A stretch of DNA of 56,126 nucleotides, counting the filler, from Asterionella formosa (taxonomy: Eukaryota): the NCBI GenBank assembly GCA_002256025.1. It is 5 parts of 5 records of this genome, joined end to end, with 100 filler letters (N's around TTAATTAATTAA, not from the genome) between each part and the next. Parts side by side here need not be neighbours in the genome. Positions count along the whole stretch, not along the records: positions 22,513 to 33,657 come from NKIB01008792.1; 4 more parts are not named here. The stretch is one strand, 5' to 3'. Position 1 is the first letter of the stretch; every line of letters starts with the position of its first letter. A program made the position numbers and the translations under genes. The notes below the pieces were generated by a model, which saw only the letters and a list, made by a program, of their open reading frames with translations, was not told the DNA's origin and made no database searches. Below are positions 22,513 to 33,657 of this stretch, piece by piece.

Positions 22513-23202
22513 TAAGACTTACGGTTCTGGTGTTGCGCTCAGAAGGGAACATCAGGAAACAAGAAGGAAAGGAATGAATATCTGTAATCATTGTGGCCAC
22601 AATGATCATCAAAGGAAAAGCAAAGGCAATCTGTCAATTCAATGTAGGGAAAGTGCCTGATCACACTGGTATGCATATGATCAATGATGATCAGCTACCT
22701 ACTGTGGATATTGTTCCGGCCAACACTCAAGAAAATGTTACATGTGCATCCATTGTGGCCAGCTTGGGTTTGCAAGACTGCGCAAACCGGGCCAATAATA
22801 TCTCGGTAAGTAATTGAATTTTACTAATCAAAATATTTATAGTGAAGCGGGCACTTACAATGGTTTTTTTTGTACAGGCGATTGCATTACGAAAAATTGA
22901 ATCACAAGACTCCTATTCCGATGGTGACGTTTTGGCAATTAGTGATTCTGATTCCGACATTTTGGCGACCATTGAAAATGCCAATATTGTTGAAATTTCG
23001 GGGGACAATAGCTCAACGTTGGCAGGGTTTGAAGAAGAGTTAAAAAATCGGTAATCTTCATTTAGCCCCAGAAGTTAACTTTCGGTGAGAAACTGCAGAA
23101 AGGAACTTCGGTTTTTTTACTAGGCCAAATCAACGAGTTGGCCCTGTAACATCCACTATTTTCAGCATAGTTACAATACCGAAATTCCTTTCTGTAGTTT
23201 CT
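22513..23202 (+). mobile_element. 3' remnant of a probable DNA transposon: Cys/His motif, intron and 25-bp subterminal inverted repeat
   Basis: CNHCGHNDHQRKSK at ~22580-22625; intron-like GTAAGT...TTTTTGTACAG (~22807-22877); inverted repeat 23088-23112 / 23178-23202 with 23 of 25 positions paired. Confidence 0.4.
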
Positions 23203-23786
23203 GGCTAGATCCTATATACTGACGTTATACAGAGTTTACCTATACCCAACATACCCCTACCGGTACTTCGATCGATGACGGTATCTAAGCATATGGAAAG
23301 GGTGTCCAATGGTGAAAGCTCCAAGTAGCGACATACATTTATTTTTACTCAAACGATGTCTGTGTTTGATTACTCTGACTAAATTTTATTTTTTAACCCT
23401 ACCTCGTGCTAGGGGTTCAAATGCAGGAACCTCAAGAAACTTCGATAATTTTAGTCGAAAGGAGTACAGTGCTGAAACGTTGACTCTCAGTGTTTAGGTG
23501 GTACCAGGTACTTCGTACGCTGGTAAACCAGTACACCACCCAAACTTTCACTTTTTGTAGCATTCCAACACAAATATTACAGTAGACTACCAGGTACCGG
23601 GACATATAATGGGTAAATAAGTTAATAGCACAAACCGTACAAACTCCAATTATGGCTCCGCGCGAAGTCTCGCTCCGTAAAATACAGGACAATAGAAGTC
23701 CAGTACAGTTCTACATACGCAGGTCATCGTGGCATCGGAGGTTTTGCACTCATCCATAAAACAAGCAGCCAGCTGAACTTGATCCC

Positions 23787-26663
23787 ATGGGAGAAACAGA
23801 GAACAACGGCGGCGGCGCCCCTGCCCCAACGGGCATGTCAGCCATGCTGAAAGAAGTACAAGAACTCGCTGACAAGTTCAAAGTAGAAGAAGATGTCGAG
23901 TACACCTCGCCGTATGCGTCTTTGGAAAAGGCTGCCGTCTTGCAAGATGCTCGTATCTTCCACGACCCTCACGAAGTGCGTGAAAATCCACGGAAATGTT
24001 GTACTGTAATTGCGCAGCTCCTTCACCTCCAAAATATGGGCCAGCAATTGCAGACAACTGAGGCCACTGAAGTTTTCTTTGGGGTTACTAAGCTTTTTAT
24101 GAGCGATGATGCCTCTCTTAGACGCATGGTCTACCTCTTCATCAAAGAGGTTGCTGAAACGTGTGATCCTGATGATATTATTATTGTCACATCATGCCTG
24201 ACCAAGGACATGACTTGCGATGTTGATCTTTACCGCGGAAATGCGCTGCGTGTGTTGGTCCGTATAGTCGATGCTGCTATGCTCGGGGCCATTGAGCGCT
24301 ATGTCAAGCAAGCCATAGTTGATTCTTCGGGCCAAGTTTCCAGCGCTGCTCTCGTTTCGTCTTTGCACCTCTTTCAGAGCTCACCGGAGAGCGCTGCTAT
24401 CGTTAAACGATGGATCACCGAGGTTACGGAAGCGACTGCGAGTCCTAATGAGATGGTTCAGTTCCATGCCATGCAATTGCTCTATCAGATAAAATCACAT
24501 GATCGGTTGGGAGTTTCAAAGGTGGTCCAGCAGTACAGCGAACGCAACTCCCTCAAGTCGCCCCTTGCGATTGTTTTGTTGATCCGCTATGCCTCCAAGC
24601 TATTGCGGGACGAGATCGCTGAGGGTCGTTTCAGCGGAAGCTCTCTTAAAGAGGGATCCCCAATGGCTCTCGCTGGTTATCACTTCCTCGAGACCAGTTT
24701 GCGACACAAATCTGAAATGGTGGTCTATGAAGCTGCTCGCAGCATTGCCACGCTTCCTGGACTCGAGGCTCAAGACTTGAGCCCTGTCATTGCCGTTCTT
24801 CAGTTATTCCTCTCGTCTCCGAAGCCTACTGTCAGATTCGCTGCTATGAAGACGTTGGCTTCCCTTGCCATATCGCAGCCCCGGGCCGTTGGCAAATGCA
24901 ATGAAGATCTCGAAGCACTTCTCAGCGATACCAATCGATCCATTTCCACTCTTGCAATGACCACCCTTCTCAAAACAAGTAACGAGTCTGCTGTTGATCG
25001 TCTTCTCAAACAGATCTCTCAGTTCTTATCCGACATTGCAGATGAGTATAAGATCACTGTTGTTAAGAGTCTGCAACAGCTGTGTTTGGTCTACCCTGCG
25101 AAGCACCGCATTTTGGTTGGGTTCCTTTCAAACTTTTTGCGGGAAGAAGGTGGCTTCGACTTCAAGCGATCTATTGTTTCCAGTATCGTATCCTTGATTC
25201 GCACCGTTCCGGAGACCACTGAAAGCTCACTCTTGCATCTTTGCGAGTTTATCGAGGATTGCGAGTTTACCATGCTCTCAACACAAATCCTCCATTTGTT
25301 GGGCGAATTGGGGCCCAGCACGACAGCGCCTGCTCGTTACATTCGATTTATCTATAATCGTGTGATTTTGGAAAACTCTTCTGTTCGAGCTGCTGCCGTT
25401 TCAGCATTGGCCAAGTTTGCTGCCCAGTGCCCTTCTCTTCGCACTTCAATCATGACTCTCTTGAAGCGTAGTTTGAACGATGAAGACGACGAAACTCGGG
25501 ATCGTGCCACTCTTTGCGTTTCTATTATTGAGGCTGCAATGTCGACATTCCCTTACGTTGCCCCTCCAGATGACATTGATGCCGGGGAATTCCCCCCTGA
25601 CAATCCTCAGGAGGGTGACACCGCGGCGTTTGTTTTGCTTGAGGCTTTACCCATGACATTCGACAAGCTTCAACGTAGTCTCAAGGTGTACATGGCCAGT
25701 CCAACGGCCATGGGAAATACCCAGCCTATTTCTGTCGAGACTTTACCTGTTGTTGAGGATACTGCTGAAGATATTGCTGCAGCGACTGGTGCTGATAGCA
25801 TGGATCTCGATGGAGCTAATCTTCTCGGCTCGGCAACCGACGAACCCAAGGAGGTCGTTGACCCTGCCGCTGCTTTGTACGAAATTCCAGAGTTGGCATC
25901 GTTTGGTCGTGTCTTCCGTTCTTCGCCGCCTGTTCAACTAACTGAGAGCGAAACGGAGTACGTGGTTCAATGCGTGAAGCACATATTTGCAAGTCATGTT
26001 GTACTCCAATTCAGTGTTCAAAATACCATTGAAGATCAACGGCTAGACAATGTGACTGTCCTTCTCGATGATAGCGATTCGGAAAACTTTAAAGTTTCTG
26101 GTGAAATCCCTGTCAACGGAATCTCGTACGGAATGACTAAGAATTGCTTCACTGTTTTGGAACGTGTCTCTGACTCCCCACTAGTTGCGAGCACATTTGC
26201 TTGTGAATTGCGATTCAATGTTGTCCAAGTTGACCCTGTTACAGGTGAAGTAGAGGGCGACTCGTTCGAAGAAGAATACCCAACCGAAGAGCTAGTTATT
26301 TCAACCTCCGATTTTATGGCGAAGGTTTCGGTCCCAGATTTTCGGAAGGCCTGGGAGGATGCGGGCAACGACAACGAGGTTCTCGAGAAGTTCGCTTTGA
26401 ATTACAAGAAAGTCGAAGACGCTGTTTCGGCTGTTCTTGGCATGTTGGGGATGCAACCAATGGATGGCACTGCTGTTGTCAAACCCGACATAGGAACAAA
26501 GGCGCACATGTTACACCTTAGTGGAGTATTTGTATCGGGACATAAGGTATTGGCTAGAGCGCAAGTTGCTAGTGCAGGCGAGAACGGAGGAGTTGTACTG
26601 AAGGTTGCTGTTCGAAGTGGAGACGCTGACGTCTCTCGACTCGTTGCTGATTGCATCAACTAA
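23787..26663 (+). CDS. COPG: Coatomer subunit gamma, 958 aa, intronless
   Basis: Gamma-COP motifs EKAAVLQDARIF, LRRMVYL, FLREEGGFDFK, LCEFIEDCEF, YIRFIYNRVILEN and LTESETEYVV. Confidence 0.98.
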   Translation: MGETENNGGGAPAPTGMSAMLKEVQELADKFKVEEDVEYTSPYASLEKAAVLQDARIFHDPHEVRENPRKCCTVIAQLLHLQNMGQQLQTTEATEVFFGVTKLFMSDDASLRRMVYLFIKEVAETCDPDDIIIVTSCLTKDMTCDVDLYRGNALRVLVRIVDAAMLGAIERYVKQAIVDSSGQVSSAALVSSLHLFQSSPESAAIVKRWITEVTEATASPNEMVQFHAMQLLYQIKSHDRLGVSKVVQQYSERNSLKSPLAIVLLIRYASKLLRDEIAEGRFSGSSLKEGSPMALAGYHFLETSLRHKSEMVVYEAARSIATLPGLEAQDLSPVIAVLQLFLSSPKPTVRFAAMKTLASLAISQPRAVGKCNEDLEALLSDTNRSISTLAMTTLLKTSNESAVDRLLKQISQFLSDIADEYKITVVKSLQQLCLVYPAKHRILVGFLSNFLREEGGFDFKRSIVSSIVSLIRTVPETTESSLLHLCEFIEDCEFTMLSTQILHLLGELGPSTTAPARYIRFIYNRVILENSSVRAAAVSALAKFAAQCPSLRTSIMTLLKRSLNDEDDETRDRATLCVSIIEAAMSTFPYVAPPDDIDAGEFPPDNPQEGDTAAFVLLEALPMTFDKLQRSLKVYMASPTAMGNTQPISVETLPVVEDTAEDIAAATGADSMDLDGANLLGSATDEPKEVVDPAAALYEIPELASFGRVFRSSPPVQLTESETEYVVQCVKHIFASHVVLQFSVQNTIEDQRLDNVTVLLDDSDSENFKVSGEIPVNGISYGMTKNCFTVLERVSDSPLVASTFACELRFNVVQVDPVTGEVEGDSFEEEYPTEELVISTSDFMAKVSVPDFRKAWEDAGNDNEVLEKFALNYKKVEDAVSAVLGMLGMQPMDGTAVVKPDIGTKAHMLHLSGVFVSGHKVLARAQVASAGENGGVVLKVAVRSGDADVSRLVADCIN

Positions 26664-27329
26664 AGTGGGTGCGAGCAGCATGCAGGTATACTCCATCATT
26701 AAAGAAATGTGAAGCCGAACAATTCTACAACTGTTCAGGTAGATAACGTATGGCTGAATTTTTCAAGTCATTATTTTTGAAATTTTAGTATGCCTAATGT
26801 TCAAACTTGTTTATGTTATTGCGATGTCCTGATTCTGTGAGGCTTGATGGATGTTCAACCAAAACTCAAGCATTTGTGATCTGGATCTGAACTTTTTTTG
26901 GGGATGAATAATGAAAGTAAAGCCAAGATTTCAAACAAAAATCAGCCAACCCCAACTTCCTGCCACTTTAGGGGGGTCTATTTGTCACACCCCAACACAA
27001 GAAAACTTGATTTTACTCCAGATTGGAAAGCCCTACTTGCTTGTTGAACCCTGTCTGAACTTCAATGTACCATCAATGAACATCTGGTCCAGGAAGCAGT
27101 CCAACAGTCAACACTAAAAGGCAGGTGAAGAATACAAGAATCGAACCCATCACCTCATGAGGTGTGCTAACCAATTAAACAAATGTATTTATTTTCCTCA
27201 GACATTCCCCTTGTACTTGCACTGACAATATCCTCTGATTTAACATGAGTTCCTGTGAGAGACATATGTAGTAATGAAGAATACATGTTGAGTTAATTTC
27301 CTACATCTTGTTTATGAAATGATGAAAAA

Positions 27330-27980
27330 GAATTCATTAGCAGTGATGCAAGTAGAACAAGAGAATAATGTTGCAACTTTCAATGCAGTAGCTTTGGGAA
27401 ACAGATCGAAATGCAACAACAGGAACAACAGCTAATGCTGCAGGAGGAGAAACAGAAAATGCAAGCAGAAGATGAGGAGAAACTGAAAATATAACAACAG
27501 GAACCACTGCAAATAAGAAAGAAAGAAAAAATTTGACAAAGTGACTCCAGCATCTATTCTCAGCCGAGCTGTCAGTCTTACTAAACTCAAGATTAGGAAA
27601 GAAAAAGAGATTTCTGGAACATGCAGATTTTCTCTTGAAAAAGTCAATAGAGTTTGCAAGGCAGAACAGGGCAACGCTCTATACAATAATATTTCGGGAC
27701 AACAAGGTTCCAGGGGAAAACAGGGACGAAGCAAAAGTTTGGAAGGCCTCAGGAAAGAGATTCCAATGGCAAACACAGTTACCAGTGGATTATAATGGGT
27801 GACATGAGAAAAATAGGATCCCGAAAAGAGGTTTTGCAATCAGAGTTACTATCAAACTTTTTATTTTGAAAATTCTCATAGGAGAGAGTGACCATCAACT
27901 TTCACTACCCCACCACCTTATATGGCCCATGGAGCGCAATGACGAAGAATCTAGAGGTGATGCGCTATAAAAATGATTGA
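27330..27980 (+). mobile_element. Third decayed LINE-derived piece ending in the conserved 3' tail
   Basis: 27880-27978 GTGACCA...TATATGGCCCATGGAGCGCAATGAC...ATGCGCTATAAAAATGATT matches 10250-10360. It is preceded by A-rich decayed coding-like sequence. Confidence 0.65.
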
Positions 27981-28120
27981 CAAATGCATGCTAACTACAT
28001 TAAATTCTAATCTTATTTTTTGTGTACTCGGAATACATTGTTATATCATTGTTTTCTTATACATCAGACCTGTTAAATTCGCATTACAAAAGACAAGAAA
28101 GCTAACAAAATCCGTCAGTA

Positions 28121-28662
28121 CCAGCAAGTTAGGGTTATTTTTCTGAAATGGACAAGGTGACGGTGGACATGAGTCATCAACTCTATCTTTGAGTTGACCG
28201 TATCACGACTTGTTAGTGACGTATTTAACTATTTCGTCTAAACACAGAAACGTTAAAACGAGGCAAAATGCTGAAAAAAAGAAAATGACAATGACTGGGG
28301 CAATAGAGTGGCGGCCCAAAGCAAAAGTTAGCAAAGTAAGCAAGTCTTGCTTACGTTGCTTTATTCTCTCCAAACTCAAAATCTTTCTCCTTTTCCGGTC
28401 GAAAATTCCCCACCTTCTTGCTTACTTTTGCTTCGGGCCCCCCTTTGCCCCAGTCATTGTTTTTATTTCAGCCATTTGCCTCGTTTTGACGTTTCCGTGG
28501 TTAGACGAAATAATTATTTACGTCACTACCGGTAGTTACAAGTCGTCATACCACTGTCGACTTACGGAGATTGTTGATGACGTTCTCTCTTTTTTGTCTT
28601 TTTAAGCGCCTGTCCTGCGTCACGTTGTCCATTTCAGCAAAGAAATCACCGCAACTTGCTGG
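28121..28662. mobile_element. Foldback/MITE-like element with long imperfect inverted arms and TA flanks
   Basis: TA|CCAGCAAGTT...AACTTGCTGG|TA termini. Outer arms 28121-28165 / 28618-28662 and inner arms ~28206-28340 / ~28414-28546 are reverse-complementary. No coding capacity. Confidence 0.8.
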
Positions 28663-29163
28663 TACCAGGTACACCAGGTAACTGGTACATACCTGTTACT
28701 GTTACCAGGTACCCTGTACTGGTAGGTGCATGCTTTGTACGTCATGCTAGTAAACTACTAGTGCACTAGCTTTCACGACGGCAAGAAAGGTACCGGTATT
28801 GGGGGTAACTAGAATTTTTTGTCAAAACAAGCACACCAGACAGTACACAGTCACCAGGTACTGTACCACTTACGCACGACAAAATAGATGTGATAGCATA
28901 CCCGTATCGAGTACGTATTTATTGATTCAATGATATGGATATGCAGGAAGACCAGGATACCGGTATTGTAGCTCCAACGGAAGACTCGTCTTCCAATCAT
29001 AGCTACAAGGGTAACTGGTACCCCTAAGTTGCTAAGTTCTTTGGATTGATCATCGTTACAAATATATTACTCCTCCACAGAAGAAGCGCTGAATATACTC
29101 GATCTTCGCTAAGCCATAGCAACACCACTGACCTCCTGCGCCTTGCTTAGGACCAACCATATC

Positions 29164-30113
29164 ATGGCCTTCGGAAAGAAGAAAGTTTTGGAAGAACCGG
29201 AAGTTGTCGTTGTTGACCATACCGGTTGGCTCCTGGCCAGCAGCGTGGCAGAGTTTATTTTGATGCACACTCATGAGATAAAGTACATGTGCATGTTTGG
29301 ATATACCTTCTACCATGGTATGTTAGTTCCAGGCGTCAAGTCTTTGCGTACCTATTTCACTTTACTCTCAATTTATATTCCTTTCCCCCTCTATGTGAAC
29401 ATGCAGGCTCCAATGTTTTTGGAAACTTGGGCAAAGACTCTCCTTTGTCGTTCAAATTCATCAATATGATTCTCGCCTGCACTGGTGGCGGAATCTTCGT
29501 TCCAATCTTCATCAATGCCATCCCCGTCCCTCTCTGCCAGGACGCCTATCCCATTGCTATCTTAGTTTCCTTCTTGCTTCACCAGTACATTCCCATTCTT
29601 CGCGAAGTCATGAAACTGTCCGCTGTTTTCCAGGTCAGTTGAGACAGGCAAATTGTTATACCCGCCTGCTTGTATTTTTCATCTGATTTTTTCTTATAAA
29701 TGTCACAGGCTGTCATCATCTTCTTGTACGAATGCCTGAGAGCCTCTGTAGTTGTAAAGCTCACCGCCGCTGCCGGTTCCACGATCCCTGCCAGTGATTT
29801 CAGTTTCCCTATTTTCGGCCCTATATTTTGCGGTGCGGTTGCAGGGTGTGGGGGCGCTTTCCTTCCATTAAACAAGGGGTTAGATCCCATTAAGAAGGAT
29901 GGATTGGCCCCTGCCATGATGTCTGCTTTAATCGCGGCCACTTTCTACCACCTCTTCGTGAACACATCACTGAGCGAAGGGGTTGTGGACGCTCCGAAGA
30001 AGGCTCATGTTGTTATCGCCATATGCTTTATTCTTCACCATTTCTCCTATACATTCAAACTGTTCGCGCGAGCTCCCAAAGTTCCTATCACCCAAGCCAA
30101 GAAGGAGAGTTAA
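29164..30113 (+). CDS. TRIC (trimeric intracellular cation channel, TMEM38/UPF0126)-like membrane protein, 261 aa
   Basis: Exons 29164-29317, 29407-29633 and 29709-30113; the GT-AG introns keep frame. Hydrophobic helices carry twin glycine motifs ACTGGGIFVP and AGCGGAFLP. Confidence 0.75.
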
Positions 30114-30312
30114 TGATACTCCCTTTTCTCCAAAAAACTACCGGTATTGATGTTCAGTTTTTTCATTACATGATGTGTTAAGAATAACCTTTGTGTAGCT
30201 GTGCCCAATACTTGCAAATATATTATACCGGTAGTCTACCTAGTCAAATCATGCTTTCTATACAATCCATCAATCATTCTTCAGTAGACTTTCTTAAATT
30301 TTACATTTGTGT

Positions 30313-33285
30313 TTAAATAGCAGTGTTAAGAGCCACCATTTGCGTGGTATCCAGCAATAGGAGGTTACTTTGATTCTCGATGAAAGCAAGAGTGTACTTG
30401 TTACTGTCGCTGATCGTCCTCAATTCATCGTGTCGTGTTTGAACCGCTTTGTGCATGGCGCGCAGTGCCCTCATAAATGGTCCTCGTGACTTGTCAATAG
30501 CCATGCCATGCGTTTGAAGCAGTTCCAAGCACCAATGCAAATAAAACTCAACATGTGGGGATTCCGACATAGCTTTGGAAACAAACTGAAGGAGTCGTTC
30601 AAGATGCTCGGGTCCAATCGCTCTGACAACATGTGGAATAGTTGCAAAAGGCGTATCCTCGAGTACTTCCTTGACCAAGGCAGACTCATTCAAATGCAAA
30701 GCCATCCGAAGGGCAGTACTGCAGTCCCCGGAAGCAAATTTAGCCTGGATAGTCGATGGGGTAATCTCTTCTGTCAAGGAGATCGGGTCAAACATCATGT
30801 CTTCATCTAATGAGTAAACATGGAGACCCTCACCAGACACGGCAGCCCATTCTCGGCCAGTTGAAGAAAAGGCAACTTGTTGAGTGAGAACTTCAACTCG
30901 ACTTTTGCGAGTACCATCATCGCCTCGCCGTGCTCCAGGCAAATTCAAAGCGTTGTATGTAGTTTCGTCTTCCGAATCGGCCTCCTCATCAACAGGACCT
31001 CCACCAGCGAGGTTTTTGGAGTTGAGCTGTAAACGAGATGAAGGAATGAATAAAGTTAGGACGTGGTCAGCAATACCAGCTATCTCAGGCAAAAAAAATT
31101 AGGGTGTGTTGCGCTCGGACATCCAAGGAAGTTAATTTCGCTCCATTGGGAATTAACCCGTCGGCGTTTCTGCGAACGTTTATGGGAAAGTCATCATCAT
31201 CGCACAAACCACACCATACAAGCAGCAAAAAACATAAATAAGGCTTTTACTCACCTCATCTAGTACTCCATCCAGCGATCGATTGAACGTGACTTGAAAC
31301 TTCTTCAGAAGCATCTGTTGACTGACTTCGTATATACATACGTACTTCGAATTTCCTCCAGCCAAAACACAGCATCCATCAGCAGAATAACAAACCGAGG
31401 TGAAGTATCGCGATGAAGCATTGTTGTCTGACGTCATCCGGTCGTTTATTTTCCTTCCTCCTGCAATGTCGCGTCGACCATCAATTTCAAACTTGAGCTT
31501 TGCACTCTCGACATCCCAGAAACTCAGTAGACCACCAATAGTTCCCGAGCAGACTTCTTTTCCATCAGGTCGAAAAGCCACACATACAACGTCAGAGGTG
31601 TGTTGCACACTCTCGGTCGCGATGTTTCCCTTGTAGAGATCCCAGAACTTGACCGTGCCATCCCAAGAAGCAGAAGCAAGACAGCCGCCACTGAGCTGGA
31701 AAGTGAGGTCGCAAACAGGGCCTTCATGTCCAGTCATAACATCGAGGAGTTTTCCAGTTTGAAGATTCCAAATGTATATGTGAAAAGGACCAGCTGACCC
31801 AGCAGCGACAATCTCTCCACTCGGATCGACTGCCAAGCTCAAGAATTGAACAGGTGTTGGTGTCGTTAGAGTTTTAAAGGTACGGTAACGGTGCAGGTCA
31901 TGAGCTCGAACAGTACCATCTAGGCTAGAGCTGAGGACGACACTTGAGTTTGCGAATCTGACAGCAGTAACTGGTGCTGTGTGAGACTGCTCCATGGTGA
32001 CATAACAAAATCCACTGGTTGCATTCCATAGTTTCAATTTGCCGTCTTCACCACCAGTACATACAACTACACCATCTGGAGAATACGCCATGGCTCGCAT
32101 ACCGTAAGCATGCCCACGCTGTTTAAGCACGTAAGTTTCAGATCTCCATTCCCAAACCAAGAGTTGCTGCGAACCAGGGCAACCCAGAGCAAGCCAATCT
32201 CCTGTGTCATTCAAAACAGCAGTTTTTATAACTTGATTGGATCCAACTGATAGAGTATGGATATTAGCAACGGATGGAAGTTCGTAGAGACCGAAGAGAC
32301 CCGAAGAAAAACCCACAACGAGAAGTTCTGCTTTTGCACAATATGATGTTGCTGTCACGTTGGCCCCTTCTTGATGAAAATAATGGCGTGATCTTAGTGA
32401 CCACGTCATCTTAACAAGATGATGGGCTTGGTTATCAGTATCATTATGAGCAGCTACAGCAATCGAGTTGTGAAGAGGACCACCCGAGAAAAACTCGAGA
32501 ACATCATCAATTTTGGCTTCACTGTCGCCATCGGCATCTGGAAGGTCAACGTCGTCGTCGTCACTGTGTCGGCACTGCCAGGTAACGAGTGCCCCATCTT
32601 CGCTAATGGTGTAACAAGAGTCAATTACTCTCCTGTTCTTTTCCATTTTCTGCGTGAAGTACGCACCGACGATGGGAGTCTTGTGTCCACTGAGAGTGAC
32701 GGGCAGGTAGTTTCTGGTTGTTGTAACAGTCCATAAGCGGCAAGTACCATCACGGCTACCAGCGAGTAGGACAGTCGAGTCTGAGCTCCAATGAAGGGAA
32801 GTAACATCATCGGACTGGCCAGTGTAGGTTCTGTGTAGGACAAGGGGTGCGAACTCCTTTCGCATCTGACTCGGTGTGTGCCAGACCTGTACATGCTTTC
32901 CATGTGTTACAGCTAAGTAGCTACCGTCTGGACTAAATAGAACTTGTCTGACCTTTCTCTTGAATCTAAAGCGATGCAGAACAATTCCTCGGTGAAAGTT
33001 GACCAGTAAAGCGTAGTTTTGAATGTCAACAACCAACAAAAGGGCATCATCGGGTGAAAGTGCCAGGCATCGAATATTGGATCTGGCCTCAATGGGAAGA
33101 GTTCTTACGGAATGAGCCTGGAGATCAATAACTTGTACACGATTAGAAACCGCGGAAATCAACGTGTTTCCCGAAGAAGAATACACAAGGTTTGCGCCAC
33201 TTCCTTTCCCTGCCTGTGTTGCAGTTGAGTTCGGGTGTCCGTAGTAGGCACCGCAAAGTCGTTGGAGCTTGTAATTGAACTTCAT
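30313..33285 (-). CDS. PWP2: Periodic tryptophan protein 2 (U3 snoRNP/SSU processome UTP1), WD40 repeats + Utp12-like C-terminus
   Basis: Exons 33285-31255 and 31026-30313 (228-nt GT-AG intron). Motifs MKFNYKLQRLCGAYY, QLLVWEWRSETYVLKQRGH, DGTVRAHDLHRYR, LPGARRGD and HVEFYLHW. Confidence 0.96.
31110..31204 (-). ncRNA. SNORD14: U14 (SNORD14/snR128) box C/D snoRNA, intron-encoded in PWP2
   Basis: Minus strand reads: TGCG stem, box C ATGATGA (31200-31194), domain A CGTTCGCAG (31178-31170), internal GTTAATT/AATTAAC stem, domain B TTCCTTGGATGT (31130-31119), box D variant CCGA (31118-31115), closing CGCA. Domain B is the exact complement of 18S ACAUCCAAGGAA. Confidence 0.9.
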
Positions 33286-33657
33286 TCTTACAGATTTCAC
33301 ACTAGCCAGTCTATGCCAACGAAAGACAGCAAGTGCGGTATTCCAATTCGGCACCGGGTCAGGATGGGGATAGGTAACATTGCCGGCAAATCACAAGCAC
33401 AGATCGAAATATATCCTAGCAAAATTATAAGGCAAACTTAAGGTGATGGAGTTCAGCCATCCTCTTCATGTTTGTTGCCAGGTGATGAGTGGCTCGAGAG
33501 ACAATGAGCTCATATTCAATTTTCCACCCAAAAATCCCTCCTCCAACCTCCTTGGATGGTTTGAGAAAAAGAAGGTCCGGTAAAAGACGGTTTGTTGCGA
33601 AGAAGAAAAAAAAGGATACATGCATACCTGGATCTTATGCTGGATCTAACCTCTAAG

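Follow-up and report, generated by a model that had tools for sequence, protein, structure and literature searches.

Does an intron of the diatom Asterionella formosa encode U14, a box C/D small nucleolar RNA (snoRNA), and do the positions at which this RNA departs from other U14s record change in its partner, the 18S ribosomal RNA (rRNA)? The question arises in a window, by which we mean the whole analysed stretch of 56,126 nucleotides (nt), filler included, joined from five records of assembly GCA_002256025.1; the intron belongs to the gene PWP2/UTP1, in the part taken from NKIB01008792.1 (positions 22,513 to 33,657). U14 is among the few snoRNAs required for 18S rRNA production and is expected in every eukaryote. 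The relevant passages of PMC7671301 and PMC3542256 describe it as conserved in all eukaryotes and as acting in both cleavage and methylation. We conclude with high confidence that positions 31207-31109 on the minus strand are a U14 (SNORD14-family) box C/D snoRNA of this diatom, lying in sense orientation within the PWP2/UTP1 intron.

A probable U14 snoRNA in the last intron of PWP2/UTP1

An earlier note on this DNA, made from the sequence alone, had placed a U14 with box C, domains A and B, box D and a terminal stem in a 228-nt intron. All of these parts are present on the minus strand between 31207 and 31109, and the readings of box D as CCGA and of domain A as CGTTCGCAG are seen in the sequence. 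Stem, box C, domain A, box D', hairpin, box C', domain B, box D and closing stem follow one another as the full U14 layout within a unit of ~99 nt:

31109..31207, minus strand: probable U14 (SNORD14-family) box C/D snoRNA including its terminal stem, ~99 nt (Rfam RF00016; conservation)
31202..31207, minus strand: terminal stem, 5' arm TTGTGC (pairs with 31114-31109)
31194..31200, minus strand: box C, ATGATGA, with a second register at 31197-31191 (sequence; invariant in 9/9 aligned copies)
31178..31188, minus strand: 11-nt element TTCCCATAAAC, conserved in the clade and immediately 5' of domain A (invariant in 9/9 diatom-type copies)
31170..31178, minus strand: domain A, CGTTCGCAG, complementary to 18S CUGCGAAYG, with an unusual G at 31177 (sequence; 9-base-pair predicted duplex)
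31161..31164, minus strand: D'-like box, CCGA (aligned position CTGA in 5/9, CCGA in 3/9 and CTTA in 1/9 copies)
31147..31160, minus strand: small hairpin GGG/CCC between D' and C' (RNAfold)
31140..31146, minus strand: C'-like box, ATGGAGC (TGG invariant, TGGAGC in 8/9 copies; independent of the search pattern)
31119..31131, minus strand: domain B, CTTCCTTGGATGT, predicted 2'-O-methylation guide for 18S ACAUC*CAAGGAAG (sequence; 13-base-pair predicted duplex)
31115..31118, minus strand: box D, CCGA (sequence)
31109..31114, minus strand: terminal stem, 3' arm GCGCAA (pairs with the 5' arm; covariation)

A permissive Rfam search of 501 nt (30900-31400) matched RF00016 at 31205-31111 over model positions 1-111 with 39 bits (E 1.2e-6), while every other family in the same interval stayed at or below 16 bits (E >2). 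At Rfam gathering thresholds nothing passed in the whole 56-kb window. The motif formed by domain B and box D occurred once in the window, against 0.08 occurrences expected from shuffles. The element has the placement of an intron-encoded box C/D snoRNA: it shares the minus strand with its host, lies in an intron that is spliced and ends 82 nt before the last intron base. Measured from the splice sites, it begins 47 nt from the 5' site and its stem ends 82-83 nt from the 3' site, which agrees with the 83 nt given in the earlier note. For intronic box C/D snoRNAs the optimal distance to the 3' splice site is roughly 70-90 nt.

The host gene was delineated as two exons and one intron:

31255..33285, minus strand: PWP2/UTP1 exon 1, 677 codons, ATG at 33285-33283 (PDB sequence search; Pfam WD40 propeller families)
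31027..31254, minus strand: phase-0 intron of 228 nt, GTGAGT...TTACAG (splice joint in RNA contigs; colinear protein alignment)
30313..31026, minus strand: PWP2/UTP1 exon 2, 237 codons and a TAA stop, Utp12 domain (Pfam PF04003 Utp12, E 1.3e-24)

Exon 1 matched human PWP2 (7mq8_LO, E 1.1e-171) and yeast Utp1 (5wlc_LO, 1.4e-164), against only 5.6e-29 for TBL3, the next WD protein of the small-subunit processome, and the best PDB match of exon 2 was the PWP2-like chain 5oql_A (E 7.4e-39). Together with the SNORD14 match, these values bear out the claim that a U14 homologue resides in a PWP2/UTP1 intron. The protein alignment is colinear across the intron, with exon 1 ending at yeast residue 628 and exon 2 resuming at 630. 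Moreover, 20 of the 24 public sequencing runs listed contain this stretch, 8 of them recorded as RNA; every one is a metagenome or metatranscriptome from a freshwater or lake source, represented by contigs. Four RNA runs were compared with the window region 30800-31500, and contigs of all four carried the joint 31026/31255, skipping exactly 228 nt. The spliced unitig reached depths of 1452, 902, 1080 and 7.2 in these runs, and a 286-nt unitig holding the intron reached 117, 15.7, 28.8 and 8.95. The intron that hosts U14 is the last of PWP2/UTP1 and is spliced at the predicted sites.

The closest named relatives of exon 1 are Seminavis robusta (75% identity), Nitzschia inconspicua (71%) and Nitzschia sp. 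Nitz4 (70%), followed by Cylindrotheca (70%), Pseudo-nitzschia (66-70%), Fistulifera (69%) and Chaetoceros (63%). This ranking confirms a diatom and assigns the window to the raphid pennates. A protein atlas search for PWP2 returned generic WD40 clusters only, which were taxonomically uninformative. Among the close relatives of PWP2 in metagenomes, many gene calls run to 680-725 residues, compared with ~914 at full length; a prokaryote-style gene caller would give such lengths on meeting an intron after residue 677, and the intron is therefore probably widespread in the clade.

Conservation of the snoRNA unit and of its host-gene placement

Related copies were sought by scanning metagenomes with a U14 pattern in which two positions could vary, the one just before TTCGCAG and the second of box D. 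The pattern demanded TTCGCAG exactly, and copies with other changes in domain A could not appear; TGATGA of box C was likewise fixed. The scan yielded at least 131 loci giving 125 unique cores among the matches listed, a scope that applies to every count of loci and cores below. A nine-copy alignment of diatom-type U14s was assembled from the window and eight cores from six loci, all carrying its TTCCCATAAAC element (L121, L097 with two, L135, L039, L016 and L069 with two). The same U14 pattern and the 18S motif were both absent from a viral contig collection, and six two-part motif matches in bacterial genome contigs were rejected as chance, having neither box C nor box D.

Searching the U14 loci with the two exons of the window (tblastn) revealed that four of them also encode PWP2, all of diatom type. 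Identity to the window's protein was 75% over the whole of exon 1 in L039, 96% and 81% in two exon pieces in L135, 81% over 67 residues in L121 and 56% in L069. The nearest named protein to that of L039 is from Seminavis robusta (76%), and judged by this protein L039 is clearly another raphid pennate diatom; the L069 protein is about equidistant from Chaetoceros (56%) and Seminavis (55%). U14 occupies the window's intron in L039, L135 and the second L069 copy, and lies one exon upstream, in an intron near residue 610, in L121 and the first L069 copy. The earlier note had pointed to PWP2 introns of other diatoms as a place to look, and U14 is found there in four metagenome contigs; on these alignments, the arrangement of U14 within PWP2 recurs in other diatom contigs.

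Two of the diatom-type loci carry more than one copy. The two copies of L069 (3001-3084 and 3414-3497) are near-identical and occupy consecutive introns around the exon for residues ~610-677; the upstream U14-bearing intron of L121 and L069 is absent from the window's PWP2. On the 802-nt contig L097, which has no PWP2 match, two diatom-type copies stand in tandem 34 nt apart (301-385 and 420-502), one with box D CCGA and D' CTTA, the other with box D CTGA and D' CCGA.

The snoRNA unit itself is far better conserved than its surroundings. Between the window and L135, 73 of 97 columns are identical within the snoRNA (75%), compared with 42 of 133 in the intron flanks (32%; p 7e-11). Because L135 was found through a pattern, the count was repeated without the 29 pattern-fixed positions, and 44 of 68 positions remained identical (p 1e-5). 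A related strain in run X18 differs from the window by seven substitutions and one deletion in the intron outside the snoRNA and by one substitution inside it (Fisher p 0.08), at 31135 in the spacer preceding domain B. Outside the pattern, the nine copies are invariant at TTCCCATAAAC, at the GC preceding D' and at the TGG of C'. By these comparisons, the snoRNA unit has been conserved and the remainder of the intron has not.

Structure is maintained as well. Across the nine copies, 85% of the 54 cells of the terminal stem are paired and four of its six pairs have changed on both sides; none of 500 shuffles reached this covariation score, and slid controls paired in only 18-52%. RNAfold placed a D'-C' hairpin of differing sequence at the same position in six of the nine copies; in L097b and the two L069 copies it gave no such hairpin at 37 C, and short complementary arms can be picked out there by eye. 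SNORD14 was matched by all eight related copies (E 8.4e-5 to 6.5e-11; 37.7-59.9 bits). All eight fall below the gathering score of 64, and the cut-off therefore seems to miss the clade as a whole.

The box D variant

Box D reads CTGA in 120 and CCGA in 5 of the 125 unique cores, and its second base is T or C only. The terminal CCGA is concentrated in the diatom-type copies, where it occurs in four of nine (window, L039, L097a and L016), versus 2 of the 117 other cores; at D', CCGA occurs in three of the nine (window, L097b and L016). No other letter was seen at 31117, the C of box D, or at 31177, the G of domain A, in the four RNA runs, which indicates that neither variant is an assembly error. 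The C appears to replace the U of a U-U pair next to the sheared G-A pairs and to be tolerated in the clade; a position restricted to T or C would suit a pairing of two pyrimidines next to the kink-turn's sheared G-A pairs, as known from the C/D motif. In the part of the literature consulted, CCGA is listed as a D' variant of Plasmodium and Entamoeba snoRNAs and is not listed there as a terminal box D.

The earlier note had taken both departures as lineage-specific. This does not hold for box D, since CCGA recurs in three of the eight related copies. It does hold for domain A: none of the eight has the G, all having A, and the G is therefore specific to the window's lineage.

Predicted contacts with 18S rRNA

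Domain B can form 13 contiguous pairs (-22.2 kcal/mol) with the sequence ...ACAUCCAAGGAAG... in the 18S rRNA of two diatom-like contigs, L139 and L147. In this duplex the first C of the CC in 18S ACAUC*CAAGG lies opposite the fifth nucleotide upstream of box D, and the methylation target named in the earlier note follows from this fifth-nucleotide rule. The corresponding target is tabulated in PMC6461891, in the entry for SNORD14 and plant U14, as small-subunit C462 in human and C416 in Arabidopsis.

Domain A can form nine pairs with 18S CUGCGAAUG in the 5' domain, whichever of two 18S variants is taken. With its G, the window's duplex reaches -16.5 kcal/mol against the C of L139 and -14.7 against the U of L147; the A-bearing domains of the relatives reach -10.7 to -13.7 kcal/mol against C and -15.1 to -18.1 against U. 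The energies imply that G pairs with either base and that A works well only with U. When domain A pairs, the fifth nucleotide upstream of D' is left unpaired in the window, which would fit a non-methylating role for this domain. By eye, AUAAAC within TTCCCATAAAC is complementary to GUUUAU, which in the L139 and L147 18S lies ~30 nt downstream of the site for domain A, and TTCCCATAAAC could make a second, bridging contact with 18S rRNA.

We infer the course of events from the established biology of U14 and of intronic box C/D snoRNAs. The intron would be spliced and debranched, and exonucleases would then trim it back to the small nucleolar ribonucleoprotein core that has formed on the C/D kink-turn. 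Guided by domain B together with box D, fibrillarin would add a 2'-O-methyl group to the 18S cytidine that corresponds to C414 in yeast and C462 in human. Domain A would pair with CUGCGAAYG in the 5' domain of the pre-rRNA, a chaperone contact that would support early 18S processing.

Does the domain A guanine compensate a change in 18S rRNA?

Of the 125 unique cores, 122 have A immediately before TTCGCAG, and G, C and T each occur once. That G is so rare elsewhere speaks for a cause behind the G here. One G-bearing copy, at L050:1625-1720, is a fungal-type U14 whose close relatives L020 and L010 have A, an independent case.

The opposing 18S site was compared among ten stramenopile-type 18S fragments, contaminants in bacterial assemblies. 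Three of them have C (L139, L142 and L146) and seven have U. L139, with CTGCGAACGG, represents the C state and L147, with CTGCGAATGG, the U state; both are diatom-like, and both match exactly the diatom-aimed primer DIV4rev3 (PMC10376359, Table 1). Scanning for the primer site returned only these same two 18S contigs. In both, the CTGGTTGAT motif stands at the 18S 5' end, with CUGCGAAYG beginning 81 nt after it. L141 has U, although over 133 nt at the 18S 5' end it shares 97.7% identity with L139. Both states evidently exist in diatom-like 18S rRNA. A literature search for printed sequence of the site turned up parasite primers only (Entamoeba, Blastocystis, Cryptosporidium and Apicomplexa) and no diatom sequence. 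The C-bearing form CTGCGAACGG, which the earlier note had invoked as the change compensated by the G, is presumably present in pennate diatom 18S records as well.

Both reference contigs have peculiarities of their own. L139 holds a 120-nt insertion (2861-2980) between CACCACCAGG and GAGTGGAGCC, which begins with (G)TATGT, ends with AACAG and looks like a spliceosomal-type intron inside the rRNA gene. A RuBisCO gene in the bacterial bin of L139 was set aside as a means of identification: judged by eye, it looks unlike diatom plastid rbcL, and it does not identify L139. From ~1840 in 18S orientation (reverse complement), just after the DIV4rev3 site, L147 is G+C-rich and does not align to other 18S sequences; the contig may be a chimera.

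Two explanations of the G are evenly balanced in our judgement. According to the first, domain A went from A to G in step with a U-to-C change in the 18S of the lineage, which would read CUGCGAACG, so that the G restores a Watson-Crick pair while sister lineages keep A-U or tolerate an A-C mismatch. A diatom-like 18S with C does exist in L139, the site is variable among the stramenopile-type contigs, G is rare among U14s, and opposite a C it gains several kcal/mol over A. Against this, A is kept in all eight related copies, including L039 and L135, and would mismatch a C; the retention in these two suggests that their own 18S has U. U is also the state of diatom-like L147 and of L141, the near-twin of the L139 5' end, and a G-U pair is cheap, the duplex being nearly as stable as the A-U duplexes of the relatives.

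The second explanation, to which we grant the same standing, is that the 18S has remained U and the G is neutral or slightly deleterious, pairing as G-U. It is favoured by that small energetic cost, by the A of all relatives, and by L050, in which G has arisen among close relatives with A. A further contig of runs X8 and X18 seems to read TTTGCAG for the expected TTCGCAG, a reading drawn from a 30-letter loose end only. On the other side stand the single G among 125 cores, which speaks against free tolerance, and the existence of a C-bearing diatom-like 18S. The X8 and X18 contig, at a low depth of 2.5-2.9, matches the window at 31112-31145 (box D, domain B and C') with two differences before diverging; it probably represents U14 from a different diatom, in which domain A has undergone a wobble-type change.

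Alternative readings of the element

Several observations weigh against reading the element as a U14 with both of the usual 18S contacts. Its SNORD14 score of 39 bits lies below the curated gathering score of 64: the Rfam check proposed in the earlier note produced a significant match but one short of that cut-off. Box D departs from CUGA. Complementarity at domain A amounts to only 9 base pairs, against ~13 for yeast U14. The 286-nt unitig comprises the entire intron under a single depth figure, in which snoRNA and pre-mRNA are inseparable. The 18S sequences used for the duplex predictions come from contaminant contigs of other species than this one. Finally, folded as a single strand, the snoRNA does no better than its shuffles (z -0.08); a weak single-strand fold is usual for C/D snoRNAs, and we took this test as uninformative.

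The RNA might be a methylation guide only for the C414-equivalent site, with a vestigial domain A that has no processing role in diatoms. Domain A complementarity is indeed shortened, to 9-11 base pairs, in all diatom-type copies, and PMC6461891 describes a nucleomorph U14 homologue in which domain B is all that is shared with the human and plant U14s. Yet TTCCCATAAAC followed by (A/G)TTCGCAG is invariant in 9/9 copies while the adjacent spacers and hairpin vary freely; TTCGCAG was fixed in the search pattern, whereas the preceding 11 nt were free. We consider this reading improbable. That the element is a chance cluster of motifs or a dead intronic copy, as its sub-threshold Rfam score and non-consensus box D might suggest, is very improbable indeed and already contradicted by conservation, given the full-length SNORD14 alignment, the conserved host-gene position across contigs, the contrast between snoRNA and intron flanks and the covarying terminal stem.

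Comparison with known U14 RNAs and meaning

The U14 that we recognise here shares with the SNORD14 family (RF00016; yeast snR128, human SNORD14A-E and Arabidopsis U14a-d) box C, a domain A of the form xATTCGCAG, the terminal stem, and a domain B CTTCCTTGGATGT that adjoins box D and has the same predicted methylation target. It differs in having CCGA at both box D and D', G for A in domain A and a score below the family's cut-off, in losing complementarity 3' of CGCAG, which leaves 9 base pairs, and in its clade-specific conserved TTCCCATAAAC. Its host also differs: PWP2, compared with RPS13 or HSPA8 in vertebrates or with polycistronic clusters.

Ostreococcus tauri provides a further U14 homologue in a unicellular alga, Ot-CDsno13, which according to the pertinent part of PMC7671301 accumulates strongly by RNA sequencing and sits in a four-snoRNA cluster, whereas the diatom U14 stands alone in a protein-gene intron and is known from sequence. 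GtNM-R9 of the Guillardia theta nucleomorph likewise extends SNORD14 beyond animals, fungi and plants, and its domain B is conserved; the figure legend in PMC6461891 marks only domain B as conserved in it and domain A for the human and plant homologues, while the diatom RNA has a clear domain A.

In its position the diatom U14 resembles intronic box C/D snoRNAs of genes for ribosome biogenesis or translation, which lie in sense, one per intron and ~80 nt before the 3' splice site; as in those hosted by ribosome-biogenesis genes, its host itself works in ribosome synthesis. Such a gene is a common kind of snoRNA host and no surprise. The earlier note was right that the host belongs to the small-subunit processome; its view that this is notable is to be qualified accordingly. 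Our literature search, which covered papers without their supplements, found no description of a diatom U14, including in the portions of PMC4247016 consulted, and no paper that brings together U14, PWP2 and the term 'host gene'; within the literature searched, this guest-host pair seems to be undescribed.

These findings leave the understanding of U14 function unchanged: the gene is genuine yet unremarkable, adding one member to a known family and bearing two single-letter variants. Routine annotation at the Rfam gathering score would overlook U14 in genomes of this diatom clade, as all nine copies fall below it; the nine aligned copies offer a starting alignment for a clade-aware SNORD14 model, and the PWP2 intron is a simple landmark by which U14 may be found in other diatoms. 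PWP2 being a UTP-B subunit of the small-subunit processome, the conserved placement would couple U14 production to the transcription of a protein gene from the same pathway. The recurrence of CCGA as box D suggests that this clade tolerates a C in place of a U in the U-U pair of the terminal kink-turn. The single G of domain A is a cheap test case of co-evolution between snoRNA and rRNA; if it does track a C in the 18S rRNA of the lineage, it would be co-evolution caught in the act at the essential contact between U14 and 18S rRNA.

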